Source of the DNA: an uncultured Victivallales bacterium
GTDB taxonomy: Bacteria; Verrucomicrobiota; Lentisphaeria; Victivallales; UBA1829
Assembly: GCA_944390795.1 (NCBI GenBank)
Contig: CALXRI010000005.1
Span: 84,842 to 148,841 of the forward strand
Reading direction: 5' to 3'
DNA: 64,000 nt
The position numbers and the translations under genes were made by a program. Position 1 is the stretch's first letter. Each line of letters starts with the position of its first letter. Under the pieces are notes generated by a model that searched no databases, was not told the DNA's origin, and worked only from the letters and a program-made list of their open reading frames with translations. Positions 1,480-52,747 of the stretch are shown one piece after another.

Positions 1480-1503
1480 GGACAGAATTCAGGGGAGGTC
1501 ATG

Positions 1504-1547: not shown

Positions 1548-1561
1548 CTGCCGGAATGCGG

Positions 1562-1984: not shown

Positions 1985-3198
1985 ATCTTGGGTCCTCCTT
2001 GACTGATTGAGTTGATTTCCATCATAGCCACAAAAATCGATACCACGACAATCAGAACCACGAGCGCCAGAAACACAATCACCGCCGGCTCGAACAGACT
2101 CAGCAGGCGCTTGATCTTCAGGCGCGTGTCGTTTTCCAGATGGTTCGCGATGCGCGAAAGCATCTCGCCGACGGTTCCGGACTCCTCGCCGACCCGCAGC
2201 ATCGGCACCATGCCCGCGGGCACAAACACATTTCCCGCAAGGGCGGCGGAAAGTTTCGCGCCGCCCTTGAGCTTGCGCGAGATATCGCTGAAAGCCTTTG
2301 CCACCACGGGGTTGGAAAGAATCCTCCCGGAGATCCGCACCGTCCGGATGATCTCCACATGATTTGCGATCAGAATCGAAAGGGTGCGGATGTATTTGCA
2401 CATCTCCAAATCCACGATGATCCGTCCGAACAGCGGCAGCGAGAGCAGGAATCTGCTGTAATTGTAGCGGAACGCCTCCTCCCCGAAAAATTTCTTGAGT
2501 CCGGTCCATGCGCCGATCACCAGGCACGGAATCACCCACCATGCCCACGAGGCAAAGGCGCTGACCCCCAGCAGAAAGTTCATCGAGGGCGGCATTTCCC
2601 GCCCCATGTCCTCGAAAATCTTCGCGAAACGCGGTACGAACACGGTGAACAGAAGCACCGTCACAATCAGCGTGATCGAAAGAATCGCAAGAGGATAAAT
2701 CGAACTTGAAATGATGAAATCCTTGAGTTCCTTGCTCTCCCCCATGAACTTGTAGAGCTGCCCGACCACTTCGGGGAGGCAGCCGGTCTCCTCGCCGCTC
2801 TCGATCAGATTCGCATAATATCCCGGAAAAAGCGACCCGTGGGACCGAACCAGTTCGGAGAATTTTTTACCTTCATGAAGCCCCTGCCGGAGAGAGTTGA
2901 CAAAATCGCGCTGTTCCGGATCGACCGCGCTTTCGGCAATGATCGCGAGCGCTTTTTCCAGCGGAATGAAGGAATCCAGAAGCGGGGCGAGCTGACGCGT
3001 GAAGTCATAGGTGTCAATTCTGGAACGGCGGAACATCAGGCCGCCCTTCCCGCCGACGGAAACCTCGCCGTAGAAGCGCACGGGCGTAACCTGGCGGCTG
3101 CGAAGCTTGCCAAGCGCCTCCTTCTCGTTGTCCGCCTCGATCAGCATTTCCTGCGGCTGTTCGCCCTTCGCCGCGGCAAGATATTTGTAAAGCCCCAT
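1981..3198 (-). CDS. gspF: T2SS inner-membrane platform protein GspF
   Basis: 405 aa with the duplicated GspF-type domain layout and three hydrophobic segments. Located between gspE and gspG. Confidence 0.9.
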   Translation of the reverse strand: MGLYKYLAAAKGEQPQEMLIEADNEKEALGKLRSRQVTPVRFYGEVSVGGKGGLMFRRSRIDTYDFTRQLAPLLDSFIPLEKALAIIAESAVDPEQRDFVNSLRQGLHEGKKFSELVRSHGSLFPGYYANLIESGEETGCLPEVVGQLYKFMGESKELKDFIISSSIYPLAILSITLIVTVLLFTVFVPRFAKIFEDMGREMPPSMNFLLGVSAFASWAWWVIPCLVIGAWTGLKKFFGEEAFRYNYSRFLLSLPLFGRIIVDLEMCKYIRTLSILIANHVEIIRTVRISGRILSNPVVAKAFSDISRKLKGGAKLSAALAGNVFVPAGMVPMLRVGEESGTVGEMLSRIANHLENDTRLKIKRLLSLFEPAVIVFLALVVLIVVVSIFVAMMEINSISQGGPKI

Positions 3199-3213
3199 CC
3201 GGAATCCTCCGCG

Positions 3214-7183: not shown

Positions 7184-7218
7184 TTCAAGACATCCTATGT
7201 TATTTTTACTGCATCACA

Positions 7219-8118
7219 TTATCTTCGGCCGGCGCGTGCGCGGTTCGTCCGCATATTGCCGGTTGCGCTCGGCTGCTGCTGCCGCTGCCGCGCCTGATTC
7301 TGACGCATCATCTGCATCATCTGTCTGTTCTGGAACATCTGCATGCGCTGCATGTTCTGGAGCGTCCGGAGCATCTGGGTTCCGGTGTTCACGCGGCGGT
7401 TCGTGCGACGGACCGTCTGGGGCGCGTTTTTCGAGGCGTCAAGCAGTTCGAGTTCCAGCTTGTCGCTGCCGCGGGTCAGGAGCACGCTGTCGCGGTTCAC
7501 CTCCGCAAGCGTATACCCGTTGCTGAGCGTCTCTCCGAGCCGGACATACTGCTTGTAGGAGACCTGATTGCCGGCGGCCGCCACTGTAATATTGGAATAA
7601 ATCGCCTTCATCTGCCCCCTGACGCCGCGCGCAGCCCCGCGCGTATTCGTGGTATTGACGTTTTCCGTTCTGTTGTTCCGCGCGATTCCCATCTGCCGGC
7701 CCGGAGGCATGATTCCGGGCGGAAGCGGACCGCCGGGAGGAAACGGAGCGTTGCGCCGCGCCGGGGCGCCGGACCCCTTCTGCTTGATGATGGCCCCGAC
7801 ACAGTCTCCGATTTTAAATGTCCCGACCAGCGAAAGTTCGACACGGGTATTTCTGCCGGGCGTGCTCGCATTGGGACAGCGGTCGGCATTGAAGACATTG
7901 GCTTCGATGATCTTTGCAAGCTGCTCGTCCGGCGTCATCTCTTTTTTCCGCGTCTCGGATGCTTTCAAAACCGGCTTTACGGGAGTCTTCAGCGGACGGA
8001 CCGCGGAACGTTTCTTCACGGTGTAAACGGTTTTATCCGCAGACTTGAAATGGGAGGCCACACCCCAGAGAAGCATTGCGGCAAGAAAGAAATTGAACAG
8101 AATCAAGACGGTTTTCAT
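7219..8118 (-). CDS. GspC-like protein (N-terminal TM, HR/PilP-like segments, Q/M/R-rich tail, no PDZ seen)
   Basis: TM helix ILFNFFLAAMLLWGV. Segments LSLVGTFKIGDCVGAIIKQ and YVRLGETLSNGYTLAEVNRDSVLLTRG resemble the GspC HR domain. Operon position is directly upstream of gspD. Confidence 0.5.
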   Translation of the reverse strand: MKTVLILFNFFLAAMLLWGVASHFKSADKTVYTVKKRSAVRPLKTPVKPVLKASETRKKEMTPDEQLAKIIEANVFNADRCPNASTPGRNTRVELSLVGTFKIGDCVGAIIKQKGSGAPARRNAPFPPGGPLPPGIMPPGRQMGIARNNRTENVNTTNTRGAARGVRGQMKAIYSNITVAAAGNQVSYKQYVRLGETLSNGYTLAEVNRDSVLLTRGSDKLELELLDASKNAPQTVRRTNRRVNTGTQMLRTLQNMQRMQMFQNRQMMQMMRQNQARQRQQQPSATGNMRTNRARAGRR

Positions 8119-8798
8119 CTTCGTCCTCCACGACGCTGCGGGATGCGCGCAAGCGTCTTTCCCCCGGGCGGCAGTTCGCCGTCAAAGGCGATCACGCGGA
8201 TGGTTCCGTTGAACATGAGCGTGGTCTGGGTGGCGGCGGTTGTCGCGGTGTTCGACACAACGCGGGTATTCTGCTGATGCGGCGGACGCATCGAAAGATT
8301 CGCCGTGATGCGCCGCCAGGGAAGCGCCGGCTTGTGCGCCTGCAGTTTCGCAATGAAATGCATCAGATTTTCAAACGGTGCGCTGAAGGAGACGTCCAGC
8401 TCCGCAAAATAAAAATCATCATTGATGCGCGAGGTCCGGACGGATCCCAGATTGTTCAGACTGATATCCGTCTCTTTCGCCGTGCTTTCAACAGCCTGAC
8501 GGAGAAGCAGTTCCGGATCTCCGTCGCGTTCGAACTGCCAGCTGTTCTCGATCATGGCGCTGTATTTCTTCTGGATTTCGTCCATTTCATGAAGCTTCTT
8601 CTGCTGTTCCGTCTGTTCCGCTTCCAGTTTTTTGATCTCCTTGCGCAGCGCCTCCTTTGCCGCCTCGTTCGGGAACCAGGCGGAAAAGCTGCCGCCCAGC
8701 TGGGTCAGGAGGAAAATCCAGCTGATCAGGAGCGCGCCGCATGCGACCGTGAGCTTGCCTTTTCCGGTTTTCAGGAATTCCTTGAGCTTCTCATTCAT
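8115..8798 (-). CDS. GspM/PilO-like bitopic membrane protein
   Basis: Single TM LTVACGALLISWIFLLTQLGG followed by a coiled coil. ATGA overlaps on both sides within the T2SS operon. Confidence 0.5.
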   Translation of the reverse strand: MNEKLKEFLKTGKGKLTVACGALLISWIFLLTQLGGSFSAWFPNEAAKEALRKEIKKLEAEQTEQQKKLHEMDEIQKKYSAMIENSWQFERDGDPELLLRQAVESTAKETDISLNNLGSVRTSRINDDFYFAELDVSFSAPFENLMHFIAKLQAHKPALPWRRITANLSMRPPHQQNTRVVSNTATTAATQTTLMFNGTIRVIAFDGELPPGGKTLARIPQRRGGRR

Positions 8799-10018
8799 TT
8801 TCGTTCCTCCGAGGAAACGAGTTTCAGCATGATCGTATTCGTCGTATCATTGTTCCTCCTGCGCTGCTGAATCTGTTCAATCTTCCAGAACTTCAGGGGA
8901 CGGATCATTTCCGGCACATTCAGACTTTCGGCCTCGCTGCGCAGCGTAAGGTCGACACTGTTGTCAGTCCAGCGCAGATTTGTGACCATGACATTGTTCG
9001 GCAGGACTTCGGAAAAGCGCGCCAGTTTTCCGATCACGTCACGCTCCCCCGGAGACTGATGAATGACGCGTGTCAGCTCGCGGAGTTCCTTTTCCGCCGT
9101 CTTGAGCTTCCGCTGGGAATTCATGACCTGTGTCCGGAGACGGTTCCGCGCGGCAGTCAGCGAGGAATACTCCCTGCGGTTGGCGGAGAGACTGCCGGCA
9201 AGTCCCCATGCGAAGTTCACGAACAGCAGAACCAGCAGCAGCGCGGTCAGACGCAGCTGATTGCGCAGACGGCTCGGACGCAGCTGCCGGGGCAGGACAT
9301 TGAGCCCCGCAAATGTATGCTTCACGTCAGCGGTGGCGGCAAGACGCGCGCACAGGAGACAGCCAAGCCATTCGGAAAGCTTGAACTCCGGATCATCCGG
9401 CAGCAGGAAGCTGCCGCGCATTTCCTTTTCCCAGAAGGAAAGCCACGCCGGCGGCAAGTCTGCTGCCGGATGCCATTCCCCGTCATCAAAATAAAAGTCA
9501 CTTTCCACTTCGGGCAGATAAACGGGGCCGTCGGATTCCCGGAGCGCAAGAAGCGGATAAACGAAATAATCGGCTTTCCCGATGCTCTGCGTCAGCATGG
9601 CGGCAAGACGCTCCTTGTCCATGGCGGGAAACGCGTAGACATTCACGGGAATGTTCTCGCCCTCCCCGCCGGGAAGAGCGACGAATTCCAGCTCAAAATC
9701 CGCAGTATCCTGAAGCAGTCTCCGGGGAAGTTCAAATTCCAGGGCGTTGCGCATCGCCTTCGGAGCAAGTCTTACGCCATTGCAGCGGAAAAAAGTCCCC
9801 CCTTTCAGCGCTCCGGACAGAATCAGCGGGCAGACACGGCTGTACGATGTCTCCCGCAGAACCTGTTTCCATGCTTTCGCAGGATCGGTTCCGTCATGCG
9901 CGCAAACCGCATAAGATTTCAGCCGGACACCTTTTGAATCGCGGCGGAATGTGCAGCACCTGACGCTGTCGGAGGAAAAAAGAAGAACGGCAAACTCTTT
10001 CAACACGGAAAATTTCAT
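8795..10018 (-). CDS. GspL-like assembly protein (PilM-like cytoplasmic domain + TM + PilN-like region)
   Basis: 407 aa. One central TM LRLTALLLVLLFVNFAWGLAG followed by a coiled coil. Operon context. Confidence 0.5.
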   Translation of the reverse strand: MKFSVLKEFAVLLFSSDSVRCCTFRRDSKGVRLKSYAVCAHDGTDPAKAWKQVLRETSYSRVCPLILSGALKGGTFFRCNGVRLAPKAMRNALEFELPRRLLQDTADFELEFVALPGGEGENIPVNVYAFPAMDKERLAAMLTQSIGKADYFVYPLLALRESDGPVYLPEVESDFYFDDGEWHPAADLPPAWLSFWEKEMRGSFLLPDDPEFKLSEWLGCLLCARLAATADVKHTFAGLNVLPRQLRPSRLRNQLRLTALLLVLLFVNFAWGLAGSLSANRREYSSLTAARNRLRTQVMNSQRKLKTAEKELRELTRVIHQSPGERDVIGKLARFSEVLPNNVMVTNLRWTDNSVDLTLRSEAESLNVPEMIRPLKFWKIEQIQQRRRNNDTTNTIMLKLVSSEERK

Positions 10019-10037
10019 GAAAGACTTCCCAGCTGTG

Positions 10038-10925
10038 TTACTGTTTCGAAGGAGTGCCGCGTCCGGCCTCGGACTGTTTCAGAAGTTTCATGACACCCTG
10101 CCGGTAGGCTTCCGGATCGTCCCGCCGCAGAGCATCCAGCTTCCGCATTTCAGCAGGATATTTTTTCCGCAGCGCCATGATCTGCCGCACGGGATTCACT
10201 CGCGGCGTGCGCGGCATGACATCCTCGCCGGATCCGGCCTGAGCGAATCCGCCGCCGGAACGGCGCATCTCCGGCATTTTCACTCCGGCCTTCTGCATCA
10301 GCTCCCAGGTCTTCAGATAGGCGGCGCGCGGTTCATCGGTGCGAAGTCTTTCAATTTCCTCAAATTCCGCCCTGAATTTGCCGGAGTTCTTGAGCTCCGC
10401 CATTTTCAGCTGCACGGATTCCATCGTCGCCGGCAGTTCGACATTTGCCTTGGCCGCCAGCGCCTCAAGCTTATTTTCCGCCTGAATCCGCTGTTTCTCA
10501 ACTTCCGCATATTCCGCGGGATATTTTTTCTTCAGCTCCGCCTCCACGGCTGCGCGCCGGTTTCTCATATTCGGAAACATCCCCATGGCGCCGCGCCGGT
10601 CATGCCTCCAGCCGGACATGGAAGAACGGTCGCCCCGGAATCCTCCCCTGGAGGACGGAAGCTTCATGGAAGCTTCAGAGGCAAGCTCCCGCATTCTCTC
10701 CAGAGCCGCAAACAGATTGACTGCCTGAAGATTTTCAATTTCCTTGAACTTTTCCGGATACTTCTTTTTGAGCGCCGCCTGAATTTCAGCCCATTGCGCG
10801 GAATTGTCCTGCCGGGCACGGTCATGCTCCCCGTTCCGGAAACGCTGTCTGCCCGATTCCTGTGCGGAGAGCATGAGGCAGGCGACAGCAAGCAGCAAAA
10901 TCCCCGCTGTTGTTGTACGTTTCAT
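10038..10925 (-). CDS. secreted helical repeat protein (4 x 'KKKYPxE(F/Y)' repeats), first gene of the T2SS operon
   Basis: Start trimmed to ATG 10925 (MKRTTTAGILLLAVACLMLSAQE signal peptide, GGGAG RBS 8 nt upstream). Repeats: LKKKYPEKFKEIENL, LKKKYPAEYAEVEKQ, GKFRAEFEEIERL, LRKKYPAEMRKLDAL. Confidence 0.7.
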   Translation of the reverse strand: MKRTTTAGILLLAVACLMLSAQESGRQRFRNGEHDRARQDNSAQWAEIQAALKKKYPEKFKEIENLQAVNLFAALERMRELASEASMKLPSSRGGFRGDRSSMSGWRHDRRGAMGMFPNMRNRRAAVEAELKKKYPAEYAEVEKQRIQAENKLEALAAKANVELPATMESVQLKMAELKNSGKFRAEFEEIERLRTDEPRAAYLKTWELMQKAGVKMPEMRRSGGGFAQAGSGEDVMPRTPRVNPVRQIMALRKKYPAEMRKLDALRRDDPEAYRQGVMKLLKQSEAGRGTPSKQ

Positions 10926-11188
10926 ACGAATTACTCCCAGAATCTGATTGAACACCCATCCAGCCAAATATTCGCTTAACGTAACAACTTTGCCATTTAT
11001 TGTGCAAAAATCAAGGGGAAATTCCATTTTTCTGAAAAAAATATCTTTTCGTTTTCCGGAAAGAGTCTCTTTTTTCACGGAATCCGTCATGCGGGGGGCA
11101 GACAGGGAGGGAAAAGGCAGGCGGAACGAATACTTTCCCTGGCGGAAGCAGGCATTTCCAGGCGGAGTGCGTTCAGGAAAGAGGGGAA

Positions 11189-14092
11189 TCAGCGGGGCAG
11201 ACACTTCACGCCGGCGATTTTTCCCTTGAAAAAGGAGATGCCGTTCTGGCCGGCGCCCAGCGCCGTCGCGCGCGGCAGCATGAGGCAGCCGGAGAAAGGC
11301 ACTTCCTTCCCGGGAAGTCCGTTGACCTCCACCCGCAGGGAGCTTCCGTCGAACAGAACACGGATCATGTTCCATTCCTTCGCCCGGAGTCCGTCCGCCG
11401 CGGCTCTTACCACCGCGGCGCGCTCACCTTTCCGGTAAAAGCGGTTGCCGGAGAACAGTGCAGCCGAAACCCTGCCGCCGGTGAACGTCAGATTGAAACC
11501 GTTGATTCCGCTGCTGAAAAGGGTTTCGGGGCGCTCCGGCAACGCATCCGGCATGGCTTTGAGTTCAAGTTCAAAACCGCAGTAAGGGGGAACCACATGC
11601 AGGGGCAGACTGACATAGTTGCAGTCCCGGAACTGCAGGCTCCAGCTTCCGTCGGGTTCCCGGACATACGCGGGCGTCTGATTTCCCACGCCTGGAAGAT
11701 TTGCGCGCAGGGAACGCCACGGGAGATTGCCGTAACCGGCCTCGCCGGAACCGTATCCTGTCGCGAGCGGAACAAATCCGCCGAGAATCCCGCTGTATTT
11801 GCTTCCCGCCGCGCAGGGAACCACAGAACCGTACCGCGGATGAAAACGATATTCAAATTCCGTGAGGAGATTCACGTCCGCCTCCACAGGAAACACCCGT
11901 TCCTTTTCCATGTCAAACACGTGAATGACACGGGTTGTGCCCGACGGTCGGTAAAGAGAAACGACGCTTCCCCGGTAAATCCCGTAATCCTCGTCGAGCG
12001 CGAGAATGGAGTAGACCGCATTTTTGTCCGAAGGACGGACAATCGCGGAAAACTCCGCAGTATTTTCGAAAAGCGGTTCCGGCATGGACACCTGGGACAG
12101 GAAACGGGAGATGACCAGATTGGAACCGTCCGGACCGCCGATTCCGGAAATCCCCTGTTTCATCAGATCCGCCGTCCGGATTCTGCCATGCATCGGAGGC
12201 AGATCCACGATCAGTTCACCGCTTTCCATATCCCGTCGCTTCATTGCCAGATAGACGGAAAATGGATACAGGCTGAATTCCACATTCCGGTAGAGCATCT
12301 TTCCATCCCGGAACCTGACGCCGCGGGCGCTTTGCACAGCCTCCGGGGAACAGTTCAGCGCAATCGCGCCGTTGAATATGCGTTTTTTCGAAGCCTGATG
12401 GGAAATGCTCAGAATGACGGTGTCATCATCCTCCTTCGGGAAGCTCCGCTTCGCATGGGAGTAAATGACATTGCTTCCCTCCAGAATCTCCGCACTGCGC
12501 AGTTTTTTCGGGGAGGAAACTCTTCCTTTCAGCAGCAGCGTCCCATCCGGTCGTCTTTCCGCCACGGCAAGCTCGCTCCGGATCCCTTTCGGAAGATCGC
12601 GCAGCGGGTGTTTCACCCATTTGTAATCCATGTTCCAGTTGGCGCGGATCTCAACCGGCGCCATGGCATCGGAAAAGACAAGGCGTTGTCCGTTCCAGGA
12701 TACGGAAAATTCCGGGCGGACGACCTGATGCCGGAGCAGTTCCGCACAGGGCATCCGGAACCAGGCGGAATCTGCAAGTTCGCAGCCGCGAAGAGAAAGA
12801 GGGGAAAAGGTTTTCACCGTATTTCCCCTGAGATCCTTCAGATGCGCCTCGATCCGGAACACCGTGTCGTCCCATATGCCGTCCGGGACATTTGCAACTT
12901 CCATTTCGAGCCATTCCCCCGCACTCAAAGTCCGGCGGTAGCTGACAATCAGATTGGGGATTGACAAATCGTCGCCGGGAAGCGGTGAAGGTTTTCCGCC
13001 GGCCAGCAGCGCCGCATAGGCCCGGACAATCCGCTGTGTGGAAAAAGAGTTGCGGACCGTCGGACGGAAATGGGTATGTTCGTTCTGTTCATCCCATTCC
13101 GTCATGACGATGAAATCAGGGCGGAGAAAACGCGCGGCCTCCAGCTTGTGCCGCAGGAAAGTCGTCCCCGTGCAGTCCAGGGTATGCGTGAAACGGTAGG
13201 AATTCGAATGTTCCGCAACCACGGCATAACCCAGTATTTTACTTCGAAACTCTTCCTCGGAATAAACACTGTTCAGAATCGGAAGGATGACCTGCCGTTC
13301 AAAATCCAGGTTGAATCTGCGTTTCCAGACGGAACTCCGGTCGCTGAAGAAAATTCCGTCCGCCGCGCGCAGCTCGGTGCGCAGCTCCTCCTTCATGCGT
13401 TCAATGGTTCTCCCGTCCAGTTTCCTGTTCGGCCGGAACGTCCTGAAACTCACATAGGGCAGGTAAAGAAAACGATCTCCATAACGCTCCCGGAGTTTCC
13501 GCCTGAGTTCCCTCGAATATGCCGGGGTTCCTCCGGGATAGCGGGTAAGGACAATTTTTCCGTTGATGCAGAAGACGTTGGGAGCCTTCATGGCAAGCCC
13601 CGCCATTTCCAGATCGGTTTCAAGCGGTTTTTTCCCCATTGGAACCAGCTCCACGAGAACAGGAAGCTCCGCGCCCTTCAGAAGTGAACGGGAAAAAAGA
13701 TCGCGCCGTCCGGAAGTCGCCGGGAAAAACGCCGCGCCGTCCATGCCGCCGAGGCGGATCGTTGCAGCCATCCGGCGATAGGCGGATTCATTGATGAAAT
13801 GCCGGGGATCATTTTTTTCCGCCAGCGAGGAATCCTGCATCAGAGGCCGATCCAGCCATTTATGCAGATAGTCGTCCCGTTCCAATCCGTATTTCAGCTG
13901 CGTCCGCACAAAGAGGAACGGCCGTTCCGTATGCGCCCGGCGGCGCGGAGCCTCCCGCTTCATGCGCTCAAGCGCAGCCGCGGCGTCCGGCGCAGGCGGC
14001 ATGCAGGGAAGATGACATTCCGCTCCGGAAGCGGAGGCGGTCAAAGCCGAAAGGATTCCTGTTAAAAGCAATCCGTAATGTTTCGTTTTCAT
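11189..14092 (-). CDS. large exported protein with C-terminal LamG/concanavalin-like domain; possible glycoside-hydrolase-like core
   Basis: ATG at 14092 with GGAG 6 nt upstream. Signal peptide MKTKHYGLLLTGILSALTASASG. C-terminal LRVEVNGLPGKEVPFSG...FFKGKIAGV is LamG-like. The motif IVMTEWDEQNEHTHFRP resembles GH71/GH99-type WNDYGE/NEWHE motifs (weak). Confidence 0.6.
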   Translation of the reverse strand: MKTKHYGLLLTGILSALTASASGAECHLPCMPPAPDAAAALERMKREAPRRRAHTERPFLFVRTQLKYGLERDDYLHKWLDRPLMQDSSLAEKNDPRHFINESAYRRMAATIRLGGMDGAAFFPATSGRRDLFSRSLLKGAELPVLVELVPMGKKPLETDLEMAGLAMKAPNVFCINGKIVLTRYPGGTPAYSRELRRKLRERYGDRFLYLPYVSFRTFRPNRKLDGRTIERMKEELRTELRAADGIFFSDRSSVWKRRFNLDFERQVILPILNSVYSEEEFRSKILGYAVVAEHSNSYRFTHTLDCTGTTFLRHKLEAARFLRPDFIVMTEWDEQNEHTHFRPTVRNSFSTQRIVRAYAALLAGGKPSPLPGDDLSIPNLIVSYRRTLSAGEWLEMEVANVPDGIWDDTVFRIEAHLKDLRGNTVKTFSPLSLRGCELADSAWFRMPCAELLRHQVVRPEFSVSWNGQRLVFSDAMAPVEIRANWNMDYKWVKHPLRDLPKGIRSELAVAERRPDGTLLLKGRVSSPKKLRSAEILEGSNVIYSHAKRSFPKEDDDTVILSISHQASKKRIFNGAIALNCSPEAVQSARGVRFRDGKMLYRNVEFSLYPFSVYLAMKRRDMESGELIVDLPPMHGRIRTADLMKQGISGIGGPDGSNLVISRFLSQVSMPEPLFENTAEFSAIVRPSDKNAVYSILALDEDYGIYRGSVVSLYRPSGTTRVIHVFDMEKERVFPVEADVNLLTEFEYRFHPRYGSVVPCAAGSKYSGILGGFVPLATGYGSGEAGYGNLPWRSLRANLPGVGNQTPAYVREPDGSWSLQFRDCNYVSLPLHVVPPYCGFELELKAMPDALPERPETLFSSGINGFNLTFTGGRVSAALFSGNRFYRKGERAAVVRAAADGLRAKEWNMIRVLFDGSSLRVEVNGLPGKEVPFSGCLMLPRATALGAGQNGISFFKGKIAGVKCLPR

Positions 14093-14094
14093 CT

Positions 14095-14880
14095 TCACTC
14101 CCAGGTGAAATATTTTTCCGTGACGGCGCTGTTCAAGTGCGTTTTTCCGTTTTTGAGATATCCCGTGTGCCCGTCGGCGAAAAGAAGATTGGTTCCGCCG
14201 CTGTGCAGATCGTGAATATACAGCCCGTTGGAAAAGGAGACATAGGAGCCGGCATTGAATTCCGTCTTCGTTTCGGCAAGAAGGAAACAGCTGGAAAATT
14301 TTTTCATTTCGGAGATCTTCACCGGAATCCAGCGTCTGGGATCTCCGGATCCGAGAACATTTTTATGGGAACCGACATAATTGTTGTTATAACCGTAACC
14401 GATGAAAGTCCATGACGCGGCGCCGCCCGGACCGACCGCATGGATGAAAACGTCAAGATCCCGATGAAAATTGGATTCCGGCGGCATGATTCCCGCGGCT
14501 GTGGGGCATTTATAAATTTTTCCCGTCGGAATGTACTTTTCCCGCTGGAACATCCATGCCCAGTTCCAGTAGTTCTTGTTGATTTCCCCCCCGCTCAAAT
14601 CGCTGAGATCCGCAGGGGGAAAAAAATCCCGGCTGTCACTGACGTAGGAATGAAAGGCGGCGCCGAACTGTTTCAGATTGCTGCCGCAGCTGATCCGGTG
14701 CGCGGCTTCTCTCGCCTTCCGGAGACCCGGCAGCAGCATGGATGCCAGAATCGCAACGATTGCAATCACAACCAGAAGTTCTACCAGTGAAAAAGATTTT
14801 CTCCGGAAAGCCGATGCCGCCTGATCCCGCACAACAAAAACGGAAACCGGATAGAACAAACATGTATGATGCCGCAGCAT
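14095..14880 (-). CDS. DUF1559 'H-X9-DG' protein with prepilin-type N-terminal methylation domain
   Basis: [24 protein letters not shown], and C-terminal [13 protein letters not shown] (H-X9-DG). ATG 14880 is preceded by GGGAGG. The stop lies 2 nt before the next gene's start. Confidence 0.85.
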
Positions 14881-14910
14881 GAAAAAAACCTCCCTGTCAG
14901 GCTTTTCCAT

Positions 14911-42900: not shown

Positions 42901-44574
42901 TTAGTATCTCACAAGAACCGAGTACTGATAACGGATTTTCGTTTCGCCGTCGGCTTTGACAAGCGTTTCCCACTTCAGGTCGCTGCGCGGATTGACCGTC
43001 GTGTAACCGTAGCGGACAAGCTCCCTGGAGGGGTTCCCGTCCGCGGAGAGAAGTTCGCCGGAGAGACGCATTTTAATCATGACCCGCGCATCACTTTTCC
43101 GATAGTTTCTCAGCGTCAGGACGCCTTCGATCTCCTGTTTCCGGTAACTGTTTCCGGCAATCCGGACTGTCACGCCGGAATTCTGTTTGACGGAGGAGGT
43201 TATCCCGGTCGCCTTTCCGGCGGACAGCTCGTTTTCGCGGATCTCGCCGATCACGGTCATGGCGCGGGTGATCCGGAGGATATTCGACTGATCGGGATTG
43301 ACCCAGTTGATGGTTGTCTGACCGAGGAATTTTCCCCCGTCGGTGATCTCGATGGGCGCAGTCGTGATCGGGGAGCGGAACGGATTCCGGAAGCGAACCG
43401 CGTCCCAGAGCGTCCCGTTATAGCGCTCGGCATTGTCGAAACGAAGCGGACGGCCCCAGTCGTCCCGGCGGTCGTCGATTGCCCATTCCACAATGCGCTC
43501 GTAGGTCGATTCGGCGCTTTCCAGCGGAAGATAGAGCCGTTCCCCGGCGTTCAGGCTGATCCGTCCGATGTTCCGGTAATGAATGTCCTCGGATTCTCCG
43601 CTCGGAGCGAGGGTCGCCCAGCCACGGGCGGCGGAATCCTCCGAAGCGGCGGTATACGCCATGTTGAACATCACGGCCGCCTTTTGTTTCGCAATGGGAT
43701 TGTATTGCGCATCCCCCTGTCCTGAAAGCTGCGCGAAAAACCGGGCAAGAGTCATTCCCGGCGCCATCGGACTCGAAGCCTTTTCAAACTGAATGTTCGG
43801 ATAACCGGAAATCAGATTCACTTCCACATCCTTCAAATCCTCCAGCTCATTGATAATGACGCAGGACATGGAAAGGCGCATTTTCGCATCCGCTCCGAGT
43901 TCCAGATGATAGGACGGCGCCCATGCCGCGCCCTTCGTCAGATACGCAATCGAAAGCGGGCCGGCAAGTTCCGTTTCCGGCGCAATCAGAAGCGTTTCCT
44001 TTTCCTGTTCCAGCGTCTGATTGAGCTTCTGCGCGCGGATGCTGAGAATCCGCGAGGAGTCTATCGAAATGATTTCCCCGTTGCTCAGACTCAAAGTCAG
44101 AAACCGTTCCGGCGCCGGAATGTAAACAGAAGGATTCCGCAAGGGCTGCGATATCCTGTTCCGTTTTTTCGTAGGAACCGGGCGGATGACCTTGCCGGCA
44201 AGTTCCGTCACAGTGCCGGAACCGTTGAGCAGGCTGATCCGGACCTCGCGGTTTTCATAGGTCGCGGTCAGATTCTGAAAAGGTTGTTCATTGGGTCCCG
44301 AAAACGGATGTTTTACTGTTTTCATGCGGAATCCGGTATAGGGAGTCAGCCATAATGTGCCGTGAATCGGCGTCATTTCGTCCTTGATGAAAAAAGGCTC
44401 GGAAAGGGGAACAGCCTCACGGACGACTGCGCCGACGCCGTTTTTAAAGAGCGCAAGTTTTGTAATGGGAGCAGGGACACAAGGGGTGTCCTTTTTTTCC
44501 TGTGTTTTTCCCGATGCAGTGACGGCAGTTGCAAGACATGCACAGAGAATTCCTGCGATCCATTGCTTTTTCAT
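42901..44574 (-). CDS. exported protein, DUF4139/DUF4140-like
   Basis: Signal peptide MKKQWIAGILCACLATAVTASG. ITKLALFKNGVGAVVREA and LSIAYLTKGAAWAPSYHLEL resemble the DUF4140/DUF4139 signatures. Confidence 0.6.
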   Translation of the reverse strand: MKKQWIAGILCACLATAVTASGKTQEKKDTPCVPAPITKLALFKNGVGAVVREAVPLSEPFFIKDEMTPIHGTLWLTPYTGFRMKTVKHPFSGPNEQPFQNLTATYENREVRISLLNGSGTVTELAGKVIRPVPTKKRNRISQPLRNPSVYIPAPERFLTLSLSNGEIISIDSSRILSIRAQKLNQTLEQEKETLLIAPETELAGPLSIAYLTKGAAWAPSYHLELGADAKMRLSMSCVIINELEDLKDVEVNLISGYPNIQFEKASSPMAPGMTLARFFAQLSGQGDAQYNPIAKQKAAVMFNMAYTAASEDSAARGWATLAPSGESEDIHYRNIGRISLNAGERLYLPLESAESTYERIVEWAIDDRRDDWGRPLRFDNAERYNGTLWDAVRFRNPFRSPITTAPIEITDGGKFLGQTTINWVNPDQSNILRITRAMTVIGEIRENELSAGKATGITSSVKQNSGVTVRIAGNSYRKQEIEGVLTLRNYRKSDARVMIKMRLSGELLSADGNPSRELVRYGYTTVNPRSDLKWETLVKADGETKIRYQYSVLVRY

Positions 44575-44609
44575 AACTTGAATCCCTCCAGAAAATTTTT
44601 TTCAAAAAC

Positions 44610-44798
44610 GGAAAAATGCAGCGCATTTTTCCCGGGGTCAAGGGCCCTCCGGCCCTTGGCGTGGTCCGGCGGCGAAACGCCGGGCGTGCGCAGCACGAAA
44701 TCCCCTTTTCGCCTCCGGCGACCAGCTTGCGCAGCTGGACCGCGGCAGGACTGAAAGTCCTGCACGATCACAAAATTGCTCCGCAATTTTTATTTTTT
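44610..44798. repeat. structured intergenic repeat, copy A (diverged)
   Basis: Shares with copies B and C the hairpin GGAAAAATGC/GCATTTTTCC, the block AAATCCCCTTTTCGC, the nested CCAGC..GCTGG/CCGCGG helix, GCAGGACTGAAAGTCCTGC (44745-44763), CACGATCACAA, and a terminal ATTGC hairpin plus T-run. Confidence 0.85.
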
Positions 44799-44819
44799 AT
44801 GCAGCTTCGCGCGCTGTTT

Positions 44820-46325
44820 TTATTTTTGTTCGTGGAAGACGATGGCCTCGAAAACCGTGAATTTCGCATCCGGCATCTTCCATGCGTCCTCTGCCAATCC
44901 CGCCTTGCGTGAAAGATATGTCAGGGTTTCCGGCAGGTCCCATCCCTGTTCCGGCGCGACCTGCGGCAGAAACACAGCCGATCGTCCGTTCTTCGTAATC
45001 GTCATCCCGTGTTTTCCGATCACGATGTCTTTCCAGGAGGCAACCGGCTTTGCCGGCGTCAATGCGGAAATCTCAATCGTCACGCGCCTGAGCTCTTCCG
45101 GTGACAACTGCGGGAAACGCGGATCGCGGAACGCCGAATCCACCGCACGCGCCGTCACCGCCTGATACAACTCACGGAAAGGTTCGATCTCCCCGATGCA
45201 GCCGCGCAGATTGTCGCCGATATTGAGCGTCACAAAACATCCCGCGACCTTCTTCATGTTCTCCGTCGCCTCGGCACGGAACAGATCGCTGCGCGGCGCT
45301 TTCCGATGTTCAAACACATATTCAATCGCCCGCCGCGCCATGGACAGAAGCGTCCGCTTCTCCTGAGCGGAAAGAAAATCCTCCGCAGCGGACTCTTCGG
45401 GAACGCCGCCCCACTCCCCCGTGACAACTCCCGAAACATAGCTGACGCAATGCGAAAAATCCCGGCTTTCCGCCGAAGACGTCGTATAGTGAAGCAGTTC
45501 CACGCGGGCCGTCTCCGGAAGCATGTAAAGAAGAATCCGGATCGGCGCCTCACCGCAGATCGTCGCTCCCGTTTTACGCAGATACGAGCCAAAAGCGGCG
45601 GGATCCTTCTTCCGGATGCATTCAAATGCCCCGAGGTCGAGTTTCCGCAGATTCTCCTCGATATCCGTCCGGAACGGCGTGTAGTCGAAATTCTCGCCGA
45701 AATGAGTGAAGTCGGAACTGATGAGAACAAGCGTCTCATGATCCGTGATCCGTTTCAGCGCCTCCGCCGCCGTTTTTGCTGTTCTGTCATCCAGACGCCC
45801 GACGACAATCGGAACGATACGGAGCTCATTTCCAAGCGCAACCTGAAGGAATGGAAGCTGAATCTGCACGCTGTGCTCTGTTCCGACGATCCGGTCGTCC
45901 GCAACAACAAATTTCTGATTCCGGAGCGTCTGAATCGCCTCCTTGTCCATCGCGAGTGCGCCAAGCGGCGTCTTCATGCCGTCCGCACCGGACGGAATGC
46001 AGATGCGGTTCTCAAGGTAAACGCGATGCGCGGGACCAAGAATGATGACACGCTTATATTGCTTCCCGGAAACCGCTTTTGCACCGTATGCGGCGGTCGG
46101 ACCGGAATAGGCATATCCGGCGTGCGGCTGAATGATTGCAATTGTTTTTTCCGGCATTCCGGCGGGCAGTTCGGCACGCGCGATCCAGGTGGAAATCTGT
46201 CTGGAAAGCTCCTTCGGATTTCCGGAATACCAGGAACCGGCGATCGTGCTTTCCAGAAGATTTCCGCCCATCAACGGCCCTGTCACCGTAATGCCGGCGG
46301 CAGCGAATAATGGATTCATGGACAC
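44820..46325 (-). CDS. fusion of MEMO1-family (AmmeMemoRadiSam protein B) and AMMECR1 (protein A) domains
   Basis: N-terminal: AGSWY, IIQPHAGYAYSGPTAAYG, GTEHSVQIQLPFL, SSDFTHFG. C-terminal: GCFVTLNIGDNLRGCIGEIEP, FRDPRFPQL, HGMTITKNGRSAVFLPQV. Confidence 0.85.
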   Translation of the reverse strand: MSMNPLFAAAGITVTGPLMGGNLLESTIAGSWYSGNPKELSRQISTWIARAELPAGMPEKTIAIIQPHAGYAYSGPTAAYGAKAVSGKQYKRVIILGPAHRVYLENRICIPSGADGMKTPLGALAMDKEAIQTLRNQKFVVADDRIVGTEHSVQIQLPFLQVALGNELRIVPIVVGRLDDRTAKTAAEALKRITDHETLVLISSDFTHFGENFDYTPFRTDIEENLRKLDLGAFECIRKKDPAAFGSYLRKTGATICGEAPIRILLYMLPETARVELLHYTTSSAESRDFSHCVSYVSGVVTGEWGGVPEESAAEDFLSAQEKRTLLSMARRAIEYVFEHRKAPRSDLFRAEATENMKKVAGCFVTLNIGDNLRGCIGEIEPFRELYQAVTARAVDSAFRDPRFPQLSPEELRRVTIEISALTPAKPVASWKDIVIGKHGMTITKNGRSAVFLPQVAPEQGWDLPETLTYLSRKAGLAEDAWKMPDAKFTVFEAIVFHEQK

Positions 46326-49110: not shown

Positions 49111-49863
49111 TTATCTGGAAACCTGGAACACGTCGTCCGGGATCCCGTCCCGGGAAAGACCCGCGGATGTCTCGTCGAAGCGGATTACAGTGTTCCATGC
49201 GCCATCTCCGCCGCTGAGATTCAGGCGGCTGACCAGCCAGAAATCCTTCTCCTTGCGGAAACCGGAAACCTCCAGTGTGCGGAACGGCTTTTTTTCCAGG
49301 CTTCTGCCGTCTGCCGCAACCTTGTACCATGACGCGCGGAGCGGAAAAAAATATTCCGTGCTGATGAAAACCATGACCGCGTCCTTCCCGTTCGGCGCGA
49401 TCAGGGTGAAGACACGGCAATTCTGCCCGCGGACGGAATCCGCCGGGTTCTCCACCTTGAGTTTCCAGTAAATGAAATTCATTGTAAGATCCTCGGGATT
49501 GATTCCGTAAACGCCGATCTGCGCCTTGCCCGGCGCAAAACCGCGGCTCTCCATCGTGGACTGCGGATTTTTTCCATAAGTCTGTCCGATATTGTAAATC
49601 TCGTTCTTATTGAAGATGATCTGAGCGATCGTGCGCTCTGGCGTGAAGAGCGTGCCCATGCGGATCGGGGCGCGGACGGTGCGTGCGCCTTCACGTTTGT
49701 GCATGGCAGAGCCTTCCATTCTCGCCCAGGAGTCGCGCCCCGGCGGATTCCGGACAATGGACAGAAACTGATCCGCGCTCAGTTCTTTTGCGGCGGGTTC
49801 CGCACCGGCAAGAACGGCAGAAAAAAGTGCCGCCAGAACGACGAAACTTGATCGAAACAACAT
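49111..49863 (-). CDS. exported protein, possibly LolA-like/outer-membrane lipoprotein-sorting fold
   Basis: ATG 49863 with AGGAGA RBS. Signal peptide MLFRSSFVVLAALFSAVLAGA. The functional call is weak. Confidence 0.55.
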   Translation of the reverse strand: MLFRSSFVVLAALFSAVLAGAEPAAKELSADQFLSIVRNPPGRDSWARMEGSAMHKREGARTVRAPIRMGTLFTPERTIAQIIFNKNEIYNIGQTYGKNPQSTMESRGFAPGKAQIGVYGINPEDLTMNFIYWKLKVENPADSVRGQNCRVFTLIAPNGKDAVMVFISTEYFFPLRASWYKVAADGRSLEKKPFRTLEVSGFRKEKDFWLVSRLNLSGGDGAWNTVIRFDETSAGLSRDGIPDDVFQVSR

Positions 49864-49921
49864 TTTTCTCTCCTGTATAAAAATCAATCCTTGGAAAAAG
49901 TTCGAGAGCTCCGGGCGATAC

Positions 49922-50082
49922 GGAAGAACGCGTCTGCATTCTTCCCGGGATCAAGGGCCGCTGACCCCGGGCGCGCAACGCGCGAAATCCCCTTTTCGCA
50001 TCCGGCGGCCAGTTTGCGCAGCTGGACCGCGGCAGGACTGAAAGTCCTGCACGATCACAAAATTGCTCCCGCAATTTTTATT
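49922..50082. repeat. structured intergenic repeat, copy B
   Basis: Head-to-tail with copy C (period 170 nt) and near-identical to it over about 130 nt. Confidence 0.9.
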
Positions 50083-50091
50083 AAAGATTAC

Positions 50092-50253
50092 GGAAGAATG
50101 CGCCTGCATTCTTCCCGGGATCAAGGGCCGCTGACCCCGGGCGCGCAACGCGCGAAATCCCCTTTTCGCATCCGGCGGCCAGTTTGCGCAGCTGGACCGC
50201 GGCAGGACTGAAAGTCCTGCACGATCACAATTTGCAGAGCAAATTATTTTTTT
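50092..50253. repeat. structured intergenic repeat, copy C (overlaps the last codons and stop of lon)
   Basis: The conserved core runs 50092-50230. The lon stop codon (50225-50227) lies inside the conserved CACGATCACAA block. Confidence 0.9.
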
Positions 50254-52747
50254 GTTTCTTTCCTTTTTTCGTGACCTTTTTCTTTTCGAGAACAAGATCC
50301 AGCACCTCTTTCACGGTCGACACAAAGTGGAACGTCACCCGGTCCCGCACTTCCTCGGGAATATCGTCCACATCCTTTCGGTTTTCCTCCGGAAGAATGA
50401 TGTTCCGGATGCCGGAACGCATCGCACCGATCGTCTTTTCCTTGACGCCGCCGATCGCAGTCACCTTTCCGCGCAGCGTGATCTCGCCGGTCATCGCGAT
50501 ATCCGGCCGCACGGGCGTGTCCGTGAGAAGCGAGACCAGCGCGGTCGTCAGCGTGACACCGGCGGACGGCCCGTCCTTCGGCGTCGCCCCGTCGGGAACA
50601 TGAATATGAAAATCATGATTCGTGAAGAGCACGGGATCGATTCCGAGCTCTTCGCTCTTTCCCTTCACAAGCGAGAAGGCGGTCAGCGCGCTTTCCTTCA
50701 TCACATCGCCAAGCGAACCGGTCAGTTTCAGATCCCCCTTTCCTGGCATGGAGGCGGCTTCCACCTGAAGGATCGTTCCGCCGACGCTGGTCCACGCCAT
50801 GCCGGTGGCCACACCGACCTCGGGTTTGCGCATCGCCTCGTCCATTGTGAAGCGGCGCACGCCCAGAAGCTCGCGGACAACCTTGTCCGTCACAATGATG
50901 GGTTCGCCCTCGGGACGCTTGCCCTCGACAATCTCTCTTGCGATCTTGCGGCAGACCGCGCCGATGGTCCGTTCGAGCGTCCGGACGCCGGCCTCGCGTG
51001 TATAGTAATTGATGATTTCGTCGACAGCCTCCATCGTAAAGTCCGGATGCTTGTCCGCCAGTCCGTTCTCCTCGATCTGACGCGGAATCAGGAACTGTTT
51101 TGCAATCTGGCGCTTTTCCATGGCTGTGTAGCCTGGCAGACGCACAATTTCCATGCGGTCGAGCAGCGGACCCGGAATGGTGTCCATGATGTTCGCCGTG
51201 GCAATGAACATGACTGAGCTCAGATCATAGTCCACTTCCAGATAGTGGTCGTTGAACGAGTTGTTCTGCTGCGGATCAAGCACTTCGAGAAGCGCCGCCG
51301 CGGGATCGCCCCGGAAATCGTTTCCGAGTTTGTCGAGCTCGTCCAGCATGAACACAGGATTGGAGCTTCCGGCCTTTTTCATTCCCTGAATGATACGGCC
51401 GGGAAGTGCGCCGATGTAGGTCCTGCGATGTCCGCGGATTTCCGCTTCGTCGCGTACGCCGCCGAGCGACATCCGGACGAACTTGCGGCCCATAGCCTCG
51501 GCGATGGACTTGCCGAGAGAGGTTTTTCCCACGCCGGGAGGGCCGACAAAACAGATGATCGGAGCCTTCCGATCCTTTTTGAGCTGAAGAACCGAGAGGA
51601 ATTCCAGGATTCTCTCCTTCACGTCCTTGAGCCCGTAATGATCGCGGTCGAGAATCTTTTCCGCCTCTGCCACGTCCAGACGGTCTTCGGTAAAATCGTT
51701 CCATGGCACCGAGAGAAGCCAGTCAATGTAGGTATAGGCGATATTGTATTCCGCCGCCGCCTGCGGAATCATCTCCAGACGCTCGGTCTCCTTTTTCACA
51801 ATTTCCAGCACATTCCCCGGAAGATTGAGTTTGGAAATCCGCTCATGAATCGCGACGATGTCGGGATTCTTCGAACCTTCGCCAAGCTCTTCCTTGATGG
51901 TCTTGAGCTGTTCGCGCAGGAAGAATTCCCGCTGGGATTTGCTCATGGCGTTGTGAACCTGCGACTGGATTTCGGAACCGAGACGCAGCACCTCCACTTC
52001 GCGGTTGAGCAGAATCGTCAGCAGGTGCAGGCGCTCCTGAAGCGTCGGAAACGTCAGAAGCGCAAGCTTCTCCGGGTAGCTGATGTTGATCGTGTCGGCA
52101 ATCAGGTCGGCGATCCGCACATTGTCGGTCAGGTTGATGATCGCGATTTTAAGTTCCTCCGGAAAGTTCGGGGAAAATGACACGATCTCCTGGAACTGCT
52201 TGACCGCGTTCCGCACCATGGCAACCGTCTCAATGCTGTTGTCGGGCTCCGCGGCAAGGCGCCGCACTTTGGCAAGACGGATGCTGTTCAGGAACACGGG
52301 TTCCGCAAATTCCACGCGGTTGAGTCCGCGCAGGAGCATGCGCACCGTGCCGTCCGGAAATTTCAGGACCTTGACGATACGGCAGAGAACGCCGGTAGAC
52401 GACACCTTTTTCCCGTCCAGCTCAAGCTCGCGGACTTTCAGACCCATGCCCTGAATGTCGGAAGCAGGCGTCTCCGGATCCGGCATCTCCGGAAAGATCG
52501 CGATCAGGCGGTCTTCTCCGGCCAAGGCCTTCTCCACCAGGGAGATCATCCCGGGATTGTCGAGCACAAGCGGCGTCAGGGCGTAAGGGAACACAATCAC
52601 GCCGGGCGGCGAGATCGCCGGAACGATCGCCTCGCTGATCTCCTCGCCTCCATTCCGAACGGAATTCTCCGGATCTTCCGCATGAATCACTTCCGGGGTG
52701 TTGGACTCATTCGTATTTTCATCGAAAATTTTCTTTTCCTCGCTCAT
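50225..52747 (-). CDS. lon: ATP-dependent Lon protease (LonA)
   Basis: Walker A GPPGVGKTS, Walker B FMLDELDK, protease Ser in PKDGPSAGVT. Lys-rich C-terminal tail KKKVTKKGKKQKNNLLCKL. Confidence 0.95.
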   Translation of the reverse strand: MSEEKKIFDENTNESNTPEVIHAEDPENSVRNGGEEISEAIVPAISPPGVIVFPYALTPLVLDNPGMISLVEKALAGEDRLIAIFPEMPDPETPASDIQGMGLKVRELELDGKKVSSTGVLCRIVKVLKFPDGTVRMLLRGLNRVEFAEPVFLNSIRLAKVRRLAAEPDNSIETVAMVRNAVKQFQEIVSFSPNFPEELKIAIINLTDNVRIADLIADTINISYPEKLALLTFPTLQERLHLLTILLNREVEVLRLGSEIQSQVHNAMSKSQREFFLREQLKTIKEELGEGSKNPDIVAIHERISKLNLPGNVLEIVKKETERLEMIPQAAAEYNIAYTYIDWLLSVPWNDFTEDRLDVAEAEKILDRDHYGLKDVKERILEFLSVLQLKKDRKAPIICFVGPPGVGKTSLGKSIAEAMGRKFVRMSLGGVRDEAEIRGHRRTYIGALPGRIIQGMKKAGSSNPVFMLDELDKLGNDFRGDPAAALLEVLDPQQNNSFNDHYLEVDYDLSSVMFIATANIMDTIPGPLLDRMEIVRLPGYTAMEKRQIAKQFLIPRQIEENGLADKHPDFTMEAVDEIINYYTREAGVRTLERTIGAVCRKIAREIVEGKRPEGEPIIVTDKVVRELLGVRRFTMDEAMRKPEVGVATGMAWTSVGGTILQVEAASMPGKGDLKLTGSLGDVMKESALTAFSLVKGKSEELGIDPVLFTNHDFHIHVPDGATPKDGPSAGVTLTTALVSLLTDTPVRPDIAMTGEITLRGKVTAIGGVKEKTIGAMRSGIRNIILPEENRKDVDDIPEEVRDRVTFHFVSTVKEVLDLVLEKKKVTKKGKKQKNNLLCKL

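Follow-up and report, generated by a model that had tools for sequence, protein, structure and literature searches.

Catalogues of interspersed palindromic repeats are extensive for Proteobacteria, Firmicutes and cyanobacteria. The BOX elements of Streptococcus pneumoniae, organized as boxA-boxB(n)-boxC, are modular, range from 67 to 637 bp, vary in size between strains and have been called as open reading frames (ORFs) (PMC3049150; PMC3184786). ERIC, an imperfect palindrome, is co-transcribed and influences the decay of mRNA (PMC3049150; PMC3184786), and an effect on mRNA processing and stability is the role proposed for ERIC/IRU and YPAL (PMC3184786). SPRITE elements are terminator-like and lie close to the 3' ends of coding sequences (PMC3049150; PMC3184786). 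The position at gene 3' ends that has been described for SPRITE, BOX and ERIC (PMC3049150, PMC3184786) is also that of all six loci of the repeat family reported here, which was examined starting from a 64-kb stretch of DNA (the window) from an uncultured Victivallales bacterium (contig CALXRI010000005.1, positions 84,842 to 148,841).

This family was previously uncatalogued, but it is of a familiar kind and is not new biology. With a probability of roughly 0.6, we regard it as a new family of modular palindromic interspersed repeats of the type of BOX, ERIC, SPRITE and miniature inverted-repeat transposable elements (MITEs), situated beside gene 3' ends, probably co-transcribed, and forming arrays whose size changes by recombination or slippage. 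As far as seen, it is restricted to one lineage of uncultured gut Victivallales (Lentisphaerota). A literature search on repeats of Victivallales or Lentisphaerota found no relevant description.

Copies of the repeat in the window

An earlier note on this DNA had reported three copies, A, B and C, with seven structural parts. The copies are where it placed them and are far beyond chance: the 29-mer GCAGGACTGAAAGTCCTGCACGATCACAA, from the 3' half of the unit, has three occurrences in the window and 0 in 100 shuffles. All seven parts are present in the window copies. The features are listed below, with coordinates of the whole window and the parts of the element read on the plus strand.

Copy A, 44608-44800, plus strand: type I (centre-deleted) unit, 186 nt plus T-run; ACGG start at 44608, T-run end at 44800
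Copy A, flanks: Memo/AMMECR1 stop codon at 44820-44822 (minus strand); ATG of the DUF4139-like gene at 44574 (minus strand)
Copy A, 5' parts: hairpin 1 (hp1) 44610-44632; hairpin 2 (hp2) 44639-44658; insert helix 44666-44683; hairpin 3 (hp3) 44685-44697
Copy A, 3' parts: deletion junction 44698-44712; helix 5 44718-44743; helix 6 44745-44763; linker 44763-44773
Copy A, 3' terminus: A/T hairpin 44773-44789; T-run to 44800
Extra hairpin GCAGCTTCGCGCGCTGT then TTTTTATTTTT, 44801-44827, plus strand: in the interval from copy A to the Memo/AMMECR1 stop codon; resembles a terminator on the plus strand but not on the minus strand
Beta-module remnant GGAAAAAGTTCGAGAGCTCCGGGCGAT, 49893-49919, plus strand: 27 nt, precedes copy B; the tail of another module
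Copy B, 49920-50085, plus strand: shorter type I unit, 162 nt; hp2 degenerate, insert helix missing
Copy B, parts: hp1 49922-49945 (one C x A mismatch); hp3 49972-49984; junction 49985-49999; helix 5 50005-50030; helix 6 50032-50050; A/T hairpin 50060-50077
Copy C, 50090-50253, plus strand: in tandem with copy B
Copy C, parts: hp1 50092-50115; hp3 50142-50154; junction 50155-50169; helix 5 50175-50200; helix 6 50202-50220
Copy C, A/T hairpin variant AATTTGC-AGA-GCAAATT, 50229-50245, plus strand: the hairpin and its T-run overlap the end of the Lon frame (TGA 50225-50227)

Copies B and C are 99 % identical and lie head-to-tail with a period of 170 nt, and copy A is a unit of the B/C type with a 26-nt insertion (alignment A1). 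In copy A, hp2 is CAAGGGCC/GGCCCTTG and is accompanied by a helix that the earlier note did not list, CCGGCG-GCGAAA-CGCCGG (the insert helix). The window units also carry helix 6, GCAGGACT-gaa-AGTCCTGC, followed by CACGATCACAA, the A/T hairpin and the T-run. As the note had held, the units are strongly structured, folding better than shuffles on both strands (copy A, z = -4.3 plus and -3.8 minus; copy C, z = -3.4 plus and -3.3 minus); with DNA folding parameters, copy A has z = -6.8. A search with a unit profile (nhmmer) revealed no further copy in the window or in the loci of the sister species described below.

The extra hairpin at 44801-44827 is conserved in two related loci, L005 and L017, and is absent from the sister species. 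No gene is annotated on the plus strand there, and it is uncertain whether this hairpin is part of the repeat element.

The full-length element and its centre-deleted derivatives

A full-length element of ~410-450 nt is common to four loci (alignment A3). Its modules, on the plus strand, are as follows.

Modules 1-4: hp1; hp2; insert helix; hp3
Module 5, beta: hairpins GAGCGG..CCGCTC and GAACTTTTC..GAAAAGTTC
Module 6: variable centre
Module 7, delta: CGAGAGCTCCGG...CCGGCGGCTCTCG, GAAGC-TTC-GCTTC and AGCGGGTGGAACCGCC
Module 8, a0: hairpin GGAG-ATTTCGC-CTCC
Modules 9-12: helix 5; helix 6; CACGA(A)TCA; A/T hairpin with T-run

Over its full extent, the left half can be aligned with the right half in reverse complement, with scores of 79-90 compared to 40-48 for the best shuffle. 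The two arms are ~65-70 % alike, and the element therefore has the terminal inverted repeats (TIRs) by which MITEs are recognized. In this arrangement, the counterpart of hp1 is the A/T hairpin, and hp2, the insert helix, hp3 and beta correspond to helix 6, helix 5, a0 and delta, respectively. Folding of the full-length element is predicted at -203 kcal/mol for the plus strand (z = -10.5) and at -198 kcal/mol for the minus strand (z = -8.0). The element is a long imperfect palindrome composed of small local palindromes.

The window copies are derivatives of this element from which the centre has been deleted. The sequence AAATCCCCTTTTCGC, which the earlier note had called invariant, is the deletion junction, where AAATCCCC (the start of beta) is joined to TTTCGC (of a0). 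It is indeed invariant within the window subfamily, but other members of the family have AAATCTCCCGCCCGG or GGAAGATTTCGCC at this position. Two ideas built on the AGGGGA/UCCCCU motif found here, a CsrA decoy and an anti-Shine-Dalgarno sequence, were discarded because the motif is the deletion junction and is absent from most of the family. The beta module, of which a remnant precedes copy B, is complete in L017, L005, L036, L037 and L041. In yet shorter units (~100 nt), nothing remains but hp1, a variant of hp2, helix 6 and the A/T hairpin. The ends of arrays are truncated units, and units are usually preceded by (T/A)AC.

Dispersal to unrelated loci

A first DNA scan of a genome collection gave the impression that the family is limited to two loci, the spacers that follow Lon and Memo/AMMECR1. 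This was an artefact of the motif used, ATCCCCTTTTCGC-N38-62-CACGATCAC, which joins two unpaired motifs and is specific to the centre-deleted subfamily. The genuine matches were confined to two contigs of one uncultured Victivallales metagenome-assembled genome (MAG), both of which begin inside a repeat copy, with at least three copies after Lon and at least two after Memo/AMMECR1. In a scan of JGI metagenomes with the same subfamily motif, all matches were due to chance. As gene callers annotate the repeat as small proteins, further loci were located by searching a protein collection with the translation of the element. Instead of the three occurrences given in the earlier note, the family is found at at least four unrelated loci beyond the Lon and Memo sites, and thus at at least six loci overall. 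The additional arrays are listed below.

L037, array 1: between convergent PIG-L and 570-aa genes
L037, array 2: between miaA and the same 570-aa gene
L039 and L040: between a rubredoxin-like gene (assigned by eye) and a DUF2400 gene
L041: between an AraC-family gene and a convergent 124-aa gene

The gene contexts (Lon, Memo/AMMECR1, miaA, rubredoxin-like, PIG-L and AraC) are unrelated to one another. When 1.84 billion representatives were searched index-free with a single pseudo-protein, the yield was 26 clusters (50 % identity); the flanking sequence differs among the 26 cluster representatives, and translated repeat motifs are recognizable in most. The second property of MITEs, dispersal of copies to unrelated intergenic sites, is thus seen in both the six or more loci and the 26 clusters of spurious ORFs. 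The earlier note had named terminal inverted repeats and random gene context among the features that would speak against a structured RNA, and this is largely what was found, namely an inverted repeat running from end to end and unrelated neighbouring genes.

The element has no coding capacity. Unit lengths (160, 162 and 186-188 nt) break the frame and there is no consistent reading frame, so a coding reading was rejected and the ORFs are by-products of GC-richness. In public assemblies, the repeat is annotated as hypothetical proteins of 72-269 aa (e.g. L012 9663-9959; L017 3149-3673; P0072-P0100), which are spurious products of frames that happen to be open in palindromic, GC-rich DNA. A six-frame chimeric protein query gave mostly low-complexity matches, and its single significant match, P0077, led to locus L041. 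P0077 is a 394-aa 'protein', in which the gene caller fused the AraC-family gene of L041 with the downstream repeat. The AraC-family gene in L041 (90-1274) appears to be frameshifted, and we read the true frame as ...PPQKYRSLRLQ* ending near 886. A practical effect of the family is therefore repeated mis-calling as protein, with 26 clusters in public protein sets. A second is that it breaks short-read assemblies at its loci; numerous contigs end within the repeat.

Three scans of viral contigs and a blastn search of plasmids and phages gave no match, and an origin from a phage or plasmid is not supported.

Occupancy and size variation in relatives

Relatives were located via homologues of the DUF4139-like protein, and their contigs were then inspected; for P0007, the sequence comprised just the 3' part of the gene, without a spacer. 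The gene order Lon, 250-aa gene, kinase, Memo/AMMECR1, DUF4139-like gene, ribonucleotide reductase is conserved, including in sister species whose DUF4139-like protein is 61-62 % identical. There, the element is absent from both spacers, which measure 79-80 nt (Lon to 250-aa gene) and 43-46 nt (Memo to DUF4139), and the Lon spacer holds a normal GC-rich intrinsic terminator, GCAGGGGA...TCCCCTGC then TTTTT (L019 4891-4969; L021 3285-3364). In the clade that carries the repeat, the canonical post-Lon terminator is missing and the repeat array is in its position. The spacers of this clade (protein at least 89 % identical) have the following lengths.

Lon to 250-aa gene: 191 or 210 nt; 361 or 380 nt; 857 nt
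Memo to DUF4139-like gene: 245 nt; 785 nt

The array appears to replace the ordinary post-Lon terminator and separates genes that are 43-80 nt apart in the sister species, and may alter operon expression.

The number of copies per array varies between strains, from one or two, through at least three (L004), to mosaic arrays of ~800 nt, with the caveat that one-copy assemblies, made from short reads, may be collapsed tandem repeats and exact copy numbers are to be read accordingly. The long arrays in L017 are mosaics in which the 5' half of the unit is combined with other modules (beta, gamma and delta), and the order of modules is identical at both loci. Arrays also occur in pairs a few kb apart, in the same orientation, around one to three genes (44.6 and 50.0 kb in the window; 2548-3110 and 4993-5510 in L037). 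Paired arrays with a common module order, as in L017, suggest local copying or gene conversion between neighbouring arrays.

Conservation of pairing

In 12 distinct short units, 96 % of cells are standard pairs compared to 35-44 % when the partners are slid by 1-3 columns, and three pairs are altered on both sides; the copies are closely related and these pairing counts are not a formal covariation test. When all loci are taken together, at least six helices contain compensated changes.

hp1: G-C / A-T, at several loci
hp2: CAAGGGCC/GGCCCTTG versus CAAGGGTC/GACCCTTG
Insert helix: G-C / A-T
hp3: C-G / T-A
Helix 5: CCAGCT/AGCTGG versus CCGGCT/AGCCGG, with a G.T intermediate in a neighbouring copy
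A/T hairpin: A-T / T-A

The two compensated changes from which the earlier note had argued (G-C to A-T in hp1 and C-G to T-A in hp3) are genuine, and its claim that double substitutions preserve pairing has gained from the additional copies. The loops are hypervariable, with 11 variants for hp1, eight for the A/T hairpin and seven for the beta hairpin b2, and no unpaired stretch is conserved across the family when all loci are compared. Pairing between the two arms was considered as a conserved feature and rejected: the change of CCGGCG/CGCCGG to CCAGCG/CGCTGG in the insert helix retains pairing within the local hairpin but not across to the opposite arm. It is therefore the local hairpins that are maintained.

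Templated correction in DNA palindromes could yield the same compensated pattern without selection. Pairing has been kept either by selection on a folded nucleic acid or by palindrome-templated correction, and a palindrome of palindromes with centre-deleted derivatives and compensated hairpins is a natural case in which to set one against the other.

These features bear on the possibility that the hairpins act as DNA. They would then be single-stranded substrates of a Y1 (HUH) transposase, as in REP/RAYT or in a palindrome-associated element derived from IS200/IS605, or extruded sites of recombination or replication, and the fixed orientation would reflect the replication strand. The hairpins are of equal quality on the two strands and fold with DNA parameters as well, and perfect stems with hypervariable loops are expected from extruded DNA hairpins subject to templated correction. 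The head-to-tail arrays, the (T/A)AC that usually precedes units and the uniform orientation also agree with it, as does the location of the carrier genes on one replication strand, as judged by GC skew. However, no transposase (including Y1), RAYT, integrase, reverse transcriptase or other mobility gene is present among the 38 ORFs of the window. The units are 5-10 times the length of REP and lack its GTAG head, no defined cleavage or target tetranucleotide was demonstrated, and the truncated units at array ends fit recombination better than serial insertion. We consider a DNA-level function of this kind to be quite unlikely.

Orientation and transcription

One end of the array abuts a gene 3' end or stop codon at 6/6 loci. 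Two of the six are flanked by convergent genes. In three lineages, the ribosome-binding site at the DUF4139 locus lies 5-30 nt beyond hp1, so the gene has to be transcribed either through the element or from within it, and from this we infer co-transcription of the minus strand. No sigma-70-like promoter was detected on either strand in or next to the arrays, given that the promoter types of Lentisphaerota are poorly known, and the sequences upstream of first copies share nothing.

The terminal A/T-rich hairpin has 7-8 bp, with two G-C pairs, and is followed on the plus strand by at least five Ts in all units; it falls below the criteria of the terminator scanner used. On the minus strand, hp1 with a U-rich stretch is terminator-like at some junctions only, and was flagged for copies A and C.

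The latter observation, together with the location of the element in the 5' leader at co-directional spacers and the series hp1, U-rich stretch, GGAGGG and ATG that three lineages share at the DUF4139 locus, is what could be said for a minus-strand cis-regulatory leader (a riboswitch or attenuator) of the DUF4139-like and 250-aa genes, with hp1 and GUUUUUG as its terminator. The earlier note had offered such a leader as a candidate. The comparative data contradict it, and we reject it as very improbable. In the sister species, the orthologous genes have no upstream element; in the carrier clade, tandem copies of varying number and composition fill spacers of ~190 to ~860 nt depending on the strain; and the element is also found between convergent genes and beside unrelated genes. 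There are no conserved junction or loop nucleotides for a ligand pocket, and Rfam holds no match. The terminator-type expression platform proposed in the note fares no better, as the GTTTTTG after hp1 is specific to the DUF4139 locus and hp1 lacks a following U-run at the junctions of the Lon side, of L037 and of the beta type.

Searches of Rfam 15 at the gathering score gave 0 matches in the window, L017, L037, L039, L040 and L041, including for group II intron, HEARO, OLE, ROOL and self-cleaving ribozymes. Permissive scans of copy A and of the full-length copy in L041 yielded only noise (20 bits or less). The Acido-Lenti-1 motif, for which the earlier note had advised a check, does not match, nor does any other Rfam family.

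Points against an interspersed repeat that is passively co-transcribed

Several observations weigh against our preferred reading, and most of them concern the strand. In 4/4 co-directional spacers, the element has the same orientation, with its plus strand running antisense to the genes. All units carry their T-run on the plus strand, after the terminal hairpin. Where only one side of a stem pair has changed, the result is G.T on the plus strand in ~11 cases and on the minus strand in four, although this lean to plus is not significant (binomial two-sided p ~0.12), and the earlier note's caution in leaving the strand undecided was justified. Uniform orientation, plus-strand T-run and G.T lean would fit a plus-strand transcript better than passive co-transcription. 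In addition, part of the differences in copy number could be due to collapse in short-read assembly, and the sole scan of a whole MAG used the motif of the window subfamily. Finally, neither a target-site duplication (TSD) nor an unoccupied site in a closely related strain nor a cognate transposase was demonstrated, the sister-species spacers being too diverged and the transposase having been sought in the 38 ORFs of the window.

The observations on the strand are best accommodated by a family of independently transcribed, structured non-coding RNA (ncRNA) genes on the plus strand. Such a transcript would begin at hp1 and end at the A/T hairpin and U-run, convergent with the neighbouring gene, with a length of ~420 nt in the full form and ~100-190 nt in short forms, and would have multiplied in tandem like some small-RNA families. 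The T-run, which is matched by only 2-4 U at the terminal hairpin on the minus strand, is kept even beside the compensated variant AATTTGC/GCAAATT; a second plus-strand terminator-like hairpin follows copy A; and the 3' end of the element always points towards the 3' end of a gene. L040 has a G.U intermediate, CCGGCT/AGCTGG, adjoining the compensated CCGGCT/AGCCGG, and the full-length fold is slightly better on the plus strand. An argument for the plus strand from a GNRA tetraloop was abandoned, as helix 6 is capped by a GAA triloop with a closing U-A pair.

Set against this, no promoter-like site precedes any copy and nothing is shared upstream of first copies, the terminal stem has only two G-C pairs, and the strand bias is not significant. 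The family lacks conserved unpaired nucleotides and its loops are hypervariable, the hairpins are independent, palindromically arranged and fold on both strands, half or more of the element can be deleted, and a match in Rfam is lacking. We therefore view ncRNA genes on the plus strand as unlikely. A more specific form, in which the full-length element of ~420 nt is a new large structured ncRNA of Lentisphaerota, transcribed on the plus strand from an unrecognized type of promoter and ending at the A/T hairpin and U-run, with hairpins under RNA selection and the window copies as truncated paralogues, seems to us doubtful.

Mode of spread and possible role of the repeats

Under our preferred reading, that of modular palindromic interspersed repeats, loss of the centre of the palindrome, slippage or unequal recombination, and gene conversion involving neighbouring arrays would generate the head-to-tail mosaic arrays that differ between strains. 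Spread to new loci would require some mobilizing activity supplied in trans. As no TSD, empty site or cognate transposase was demonstrated, we infer mobility from the distribution alone. Of the three candidates in the earlier note, the selfish repeat of the REP/ERIC/MITE type is the one that fits best. Among described repeats, the nearest analogues are BOX and SPRITE of pneumococci and the enterobacterial ERIC.

Copies positioned right after stop codons, in co-directional spacers ahead of the ribosome-binding site of the next gene, are most probably co-transcribed, with the minus strand as the RNA. Several stable stem-loops in a row would hinder read-through and exonucleases, and by analogy with known repeats the co-transcribed stem-loops may serve as a terminator or mRNA stabilizer. 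The element has probably taken over the role of the ordinary intergenic terminator, as has been proposed for SPRITE, REP and ERIC.

Genomic setting

The genes neighbouring the copies are all on the minus strand and are listed below.

DUF4139-like gene, 42901-44574, minus strand
Memo+AMMECR1 fusion, 44820-46325, minus strand
Ser/Thr kinase, minus strand: between Memo/AMMECR1 and the 250-aa gene in the conserved gene order
250-aa gene, 49111-49863, minus strand: no assigned function
Lon, 50225-52747, minus strand

Copies B and C occupy the spacer from the Lon stop to the start of the 250-aa gene. Lon is 840 aa in the window and in some strains and 834 aa in others, because a run of A7 versus A8 just before TAA shifts the frame. 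As a result of this frame shift, the Lon frame in the window enters copy C, and it terminates at a TGA inside CACGATCACAA. The window is otherwise ordinary chromosome, with genes for type II secretion, MetRS, ribonucleotide reductase and FeFe hydrogenase. The type II secretion cluster (1-14900, minus strand) includes GspF, GspE, the secretin GspD, a GspC-like gene and a pseudopilin with an N-methylation motif, and is interleaved with large ORFs that have no Pfam match. An integron origin, with the repeats as attC sites of a cassette array, was rejected, as the flanks are housekeeping genes in the same order as in the repeat-free species and the window contains no integrase.

Comparison with known repeat systems

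REP/BIME and REPIN sequences resemble the element in being hairpin-forming extragenic palindromes located at operon 3' ends or between cistrons. BIMEs cluster into mosaics, and REP, BIME and REPIN stabilize upstream mRNA. However, REP sequences are 20-40 nt, have a conserved 5' GTAG and depend on RAYT, whereas the units here are 100-450 nt and start with ACGGAAGAATGC, and the window has no gene of the Y1_Tnp type. The MIRU elements, mycobacterial variable-number tandem repeat loci, are also head-to-tail repeats in the intercistronic spacers of operons with a copy number that varies between strains. They differ in being 40-100 bp long with little structure, and are considered to contain coupled short reading frames, whereas the units here keep no frame.

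With bacterial MITEs such as Correia/CREE, and MaeMITE and NFM2 of up to ~435-439 bp, the family shares its non-autonomous, non-coding nature, inverted repeats, intergenic dispersal and an overlapping size range (PMC3184786, Table 1). It departs from them in having no demonstrated TSD, matching insertion sequence or pair of occupied and empty sites, and its arrays of truncated units look recombinational rather than insertional.

SPRITE elements also combine a terminator-like hairpin with a T-rich tract, lie near coding 3' termini and between convergent genes, and have been suggested to be co-opted as terminators (PMC3049150). For SPRITE, as for the element here, there are no empty sites from which to determine a TSD (PMC3049150). 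However, SPRITE is ~105 bp, AT-rich and made of a single 18-bp duplex, whereas the element here is GC-rich, with many hairpins of which only the last module is terminator-like. ERIC/IRU and YPAL are likewise imperfect palindromes with internal deletions or insertions, found in intergenic DNA that is transcribed, inside operons or at the 3' ends of genes (PMC3184786). In contrast to the ~420 nt element, which forms head-to-tail arrays with, so far, one orientation in co-directional spacers, ERIC is ~127 bp, occurs singly and in both orientations, and has TIRs flanked by TA; the sequences are unrelated.

BOX has no sequence relationship to the family, whose host belongs to the Lentisphaerota, and insertion with TIRs and TSDs is known for BOX but was not demonstrated here. 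Both are non-coding and modular, with a strain-variable number of modules and size, extensive stem-loops predicted if transcribed, and a narrow lineage. They differ in how this variation arises: in BOX it is the middle module that varies, whereas the element described here is one long imperfect palindrome that gives rise to short forms by loss of its centre.

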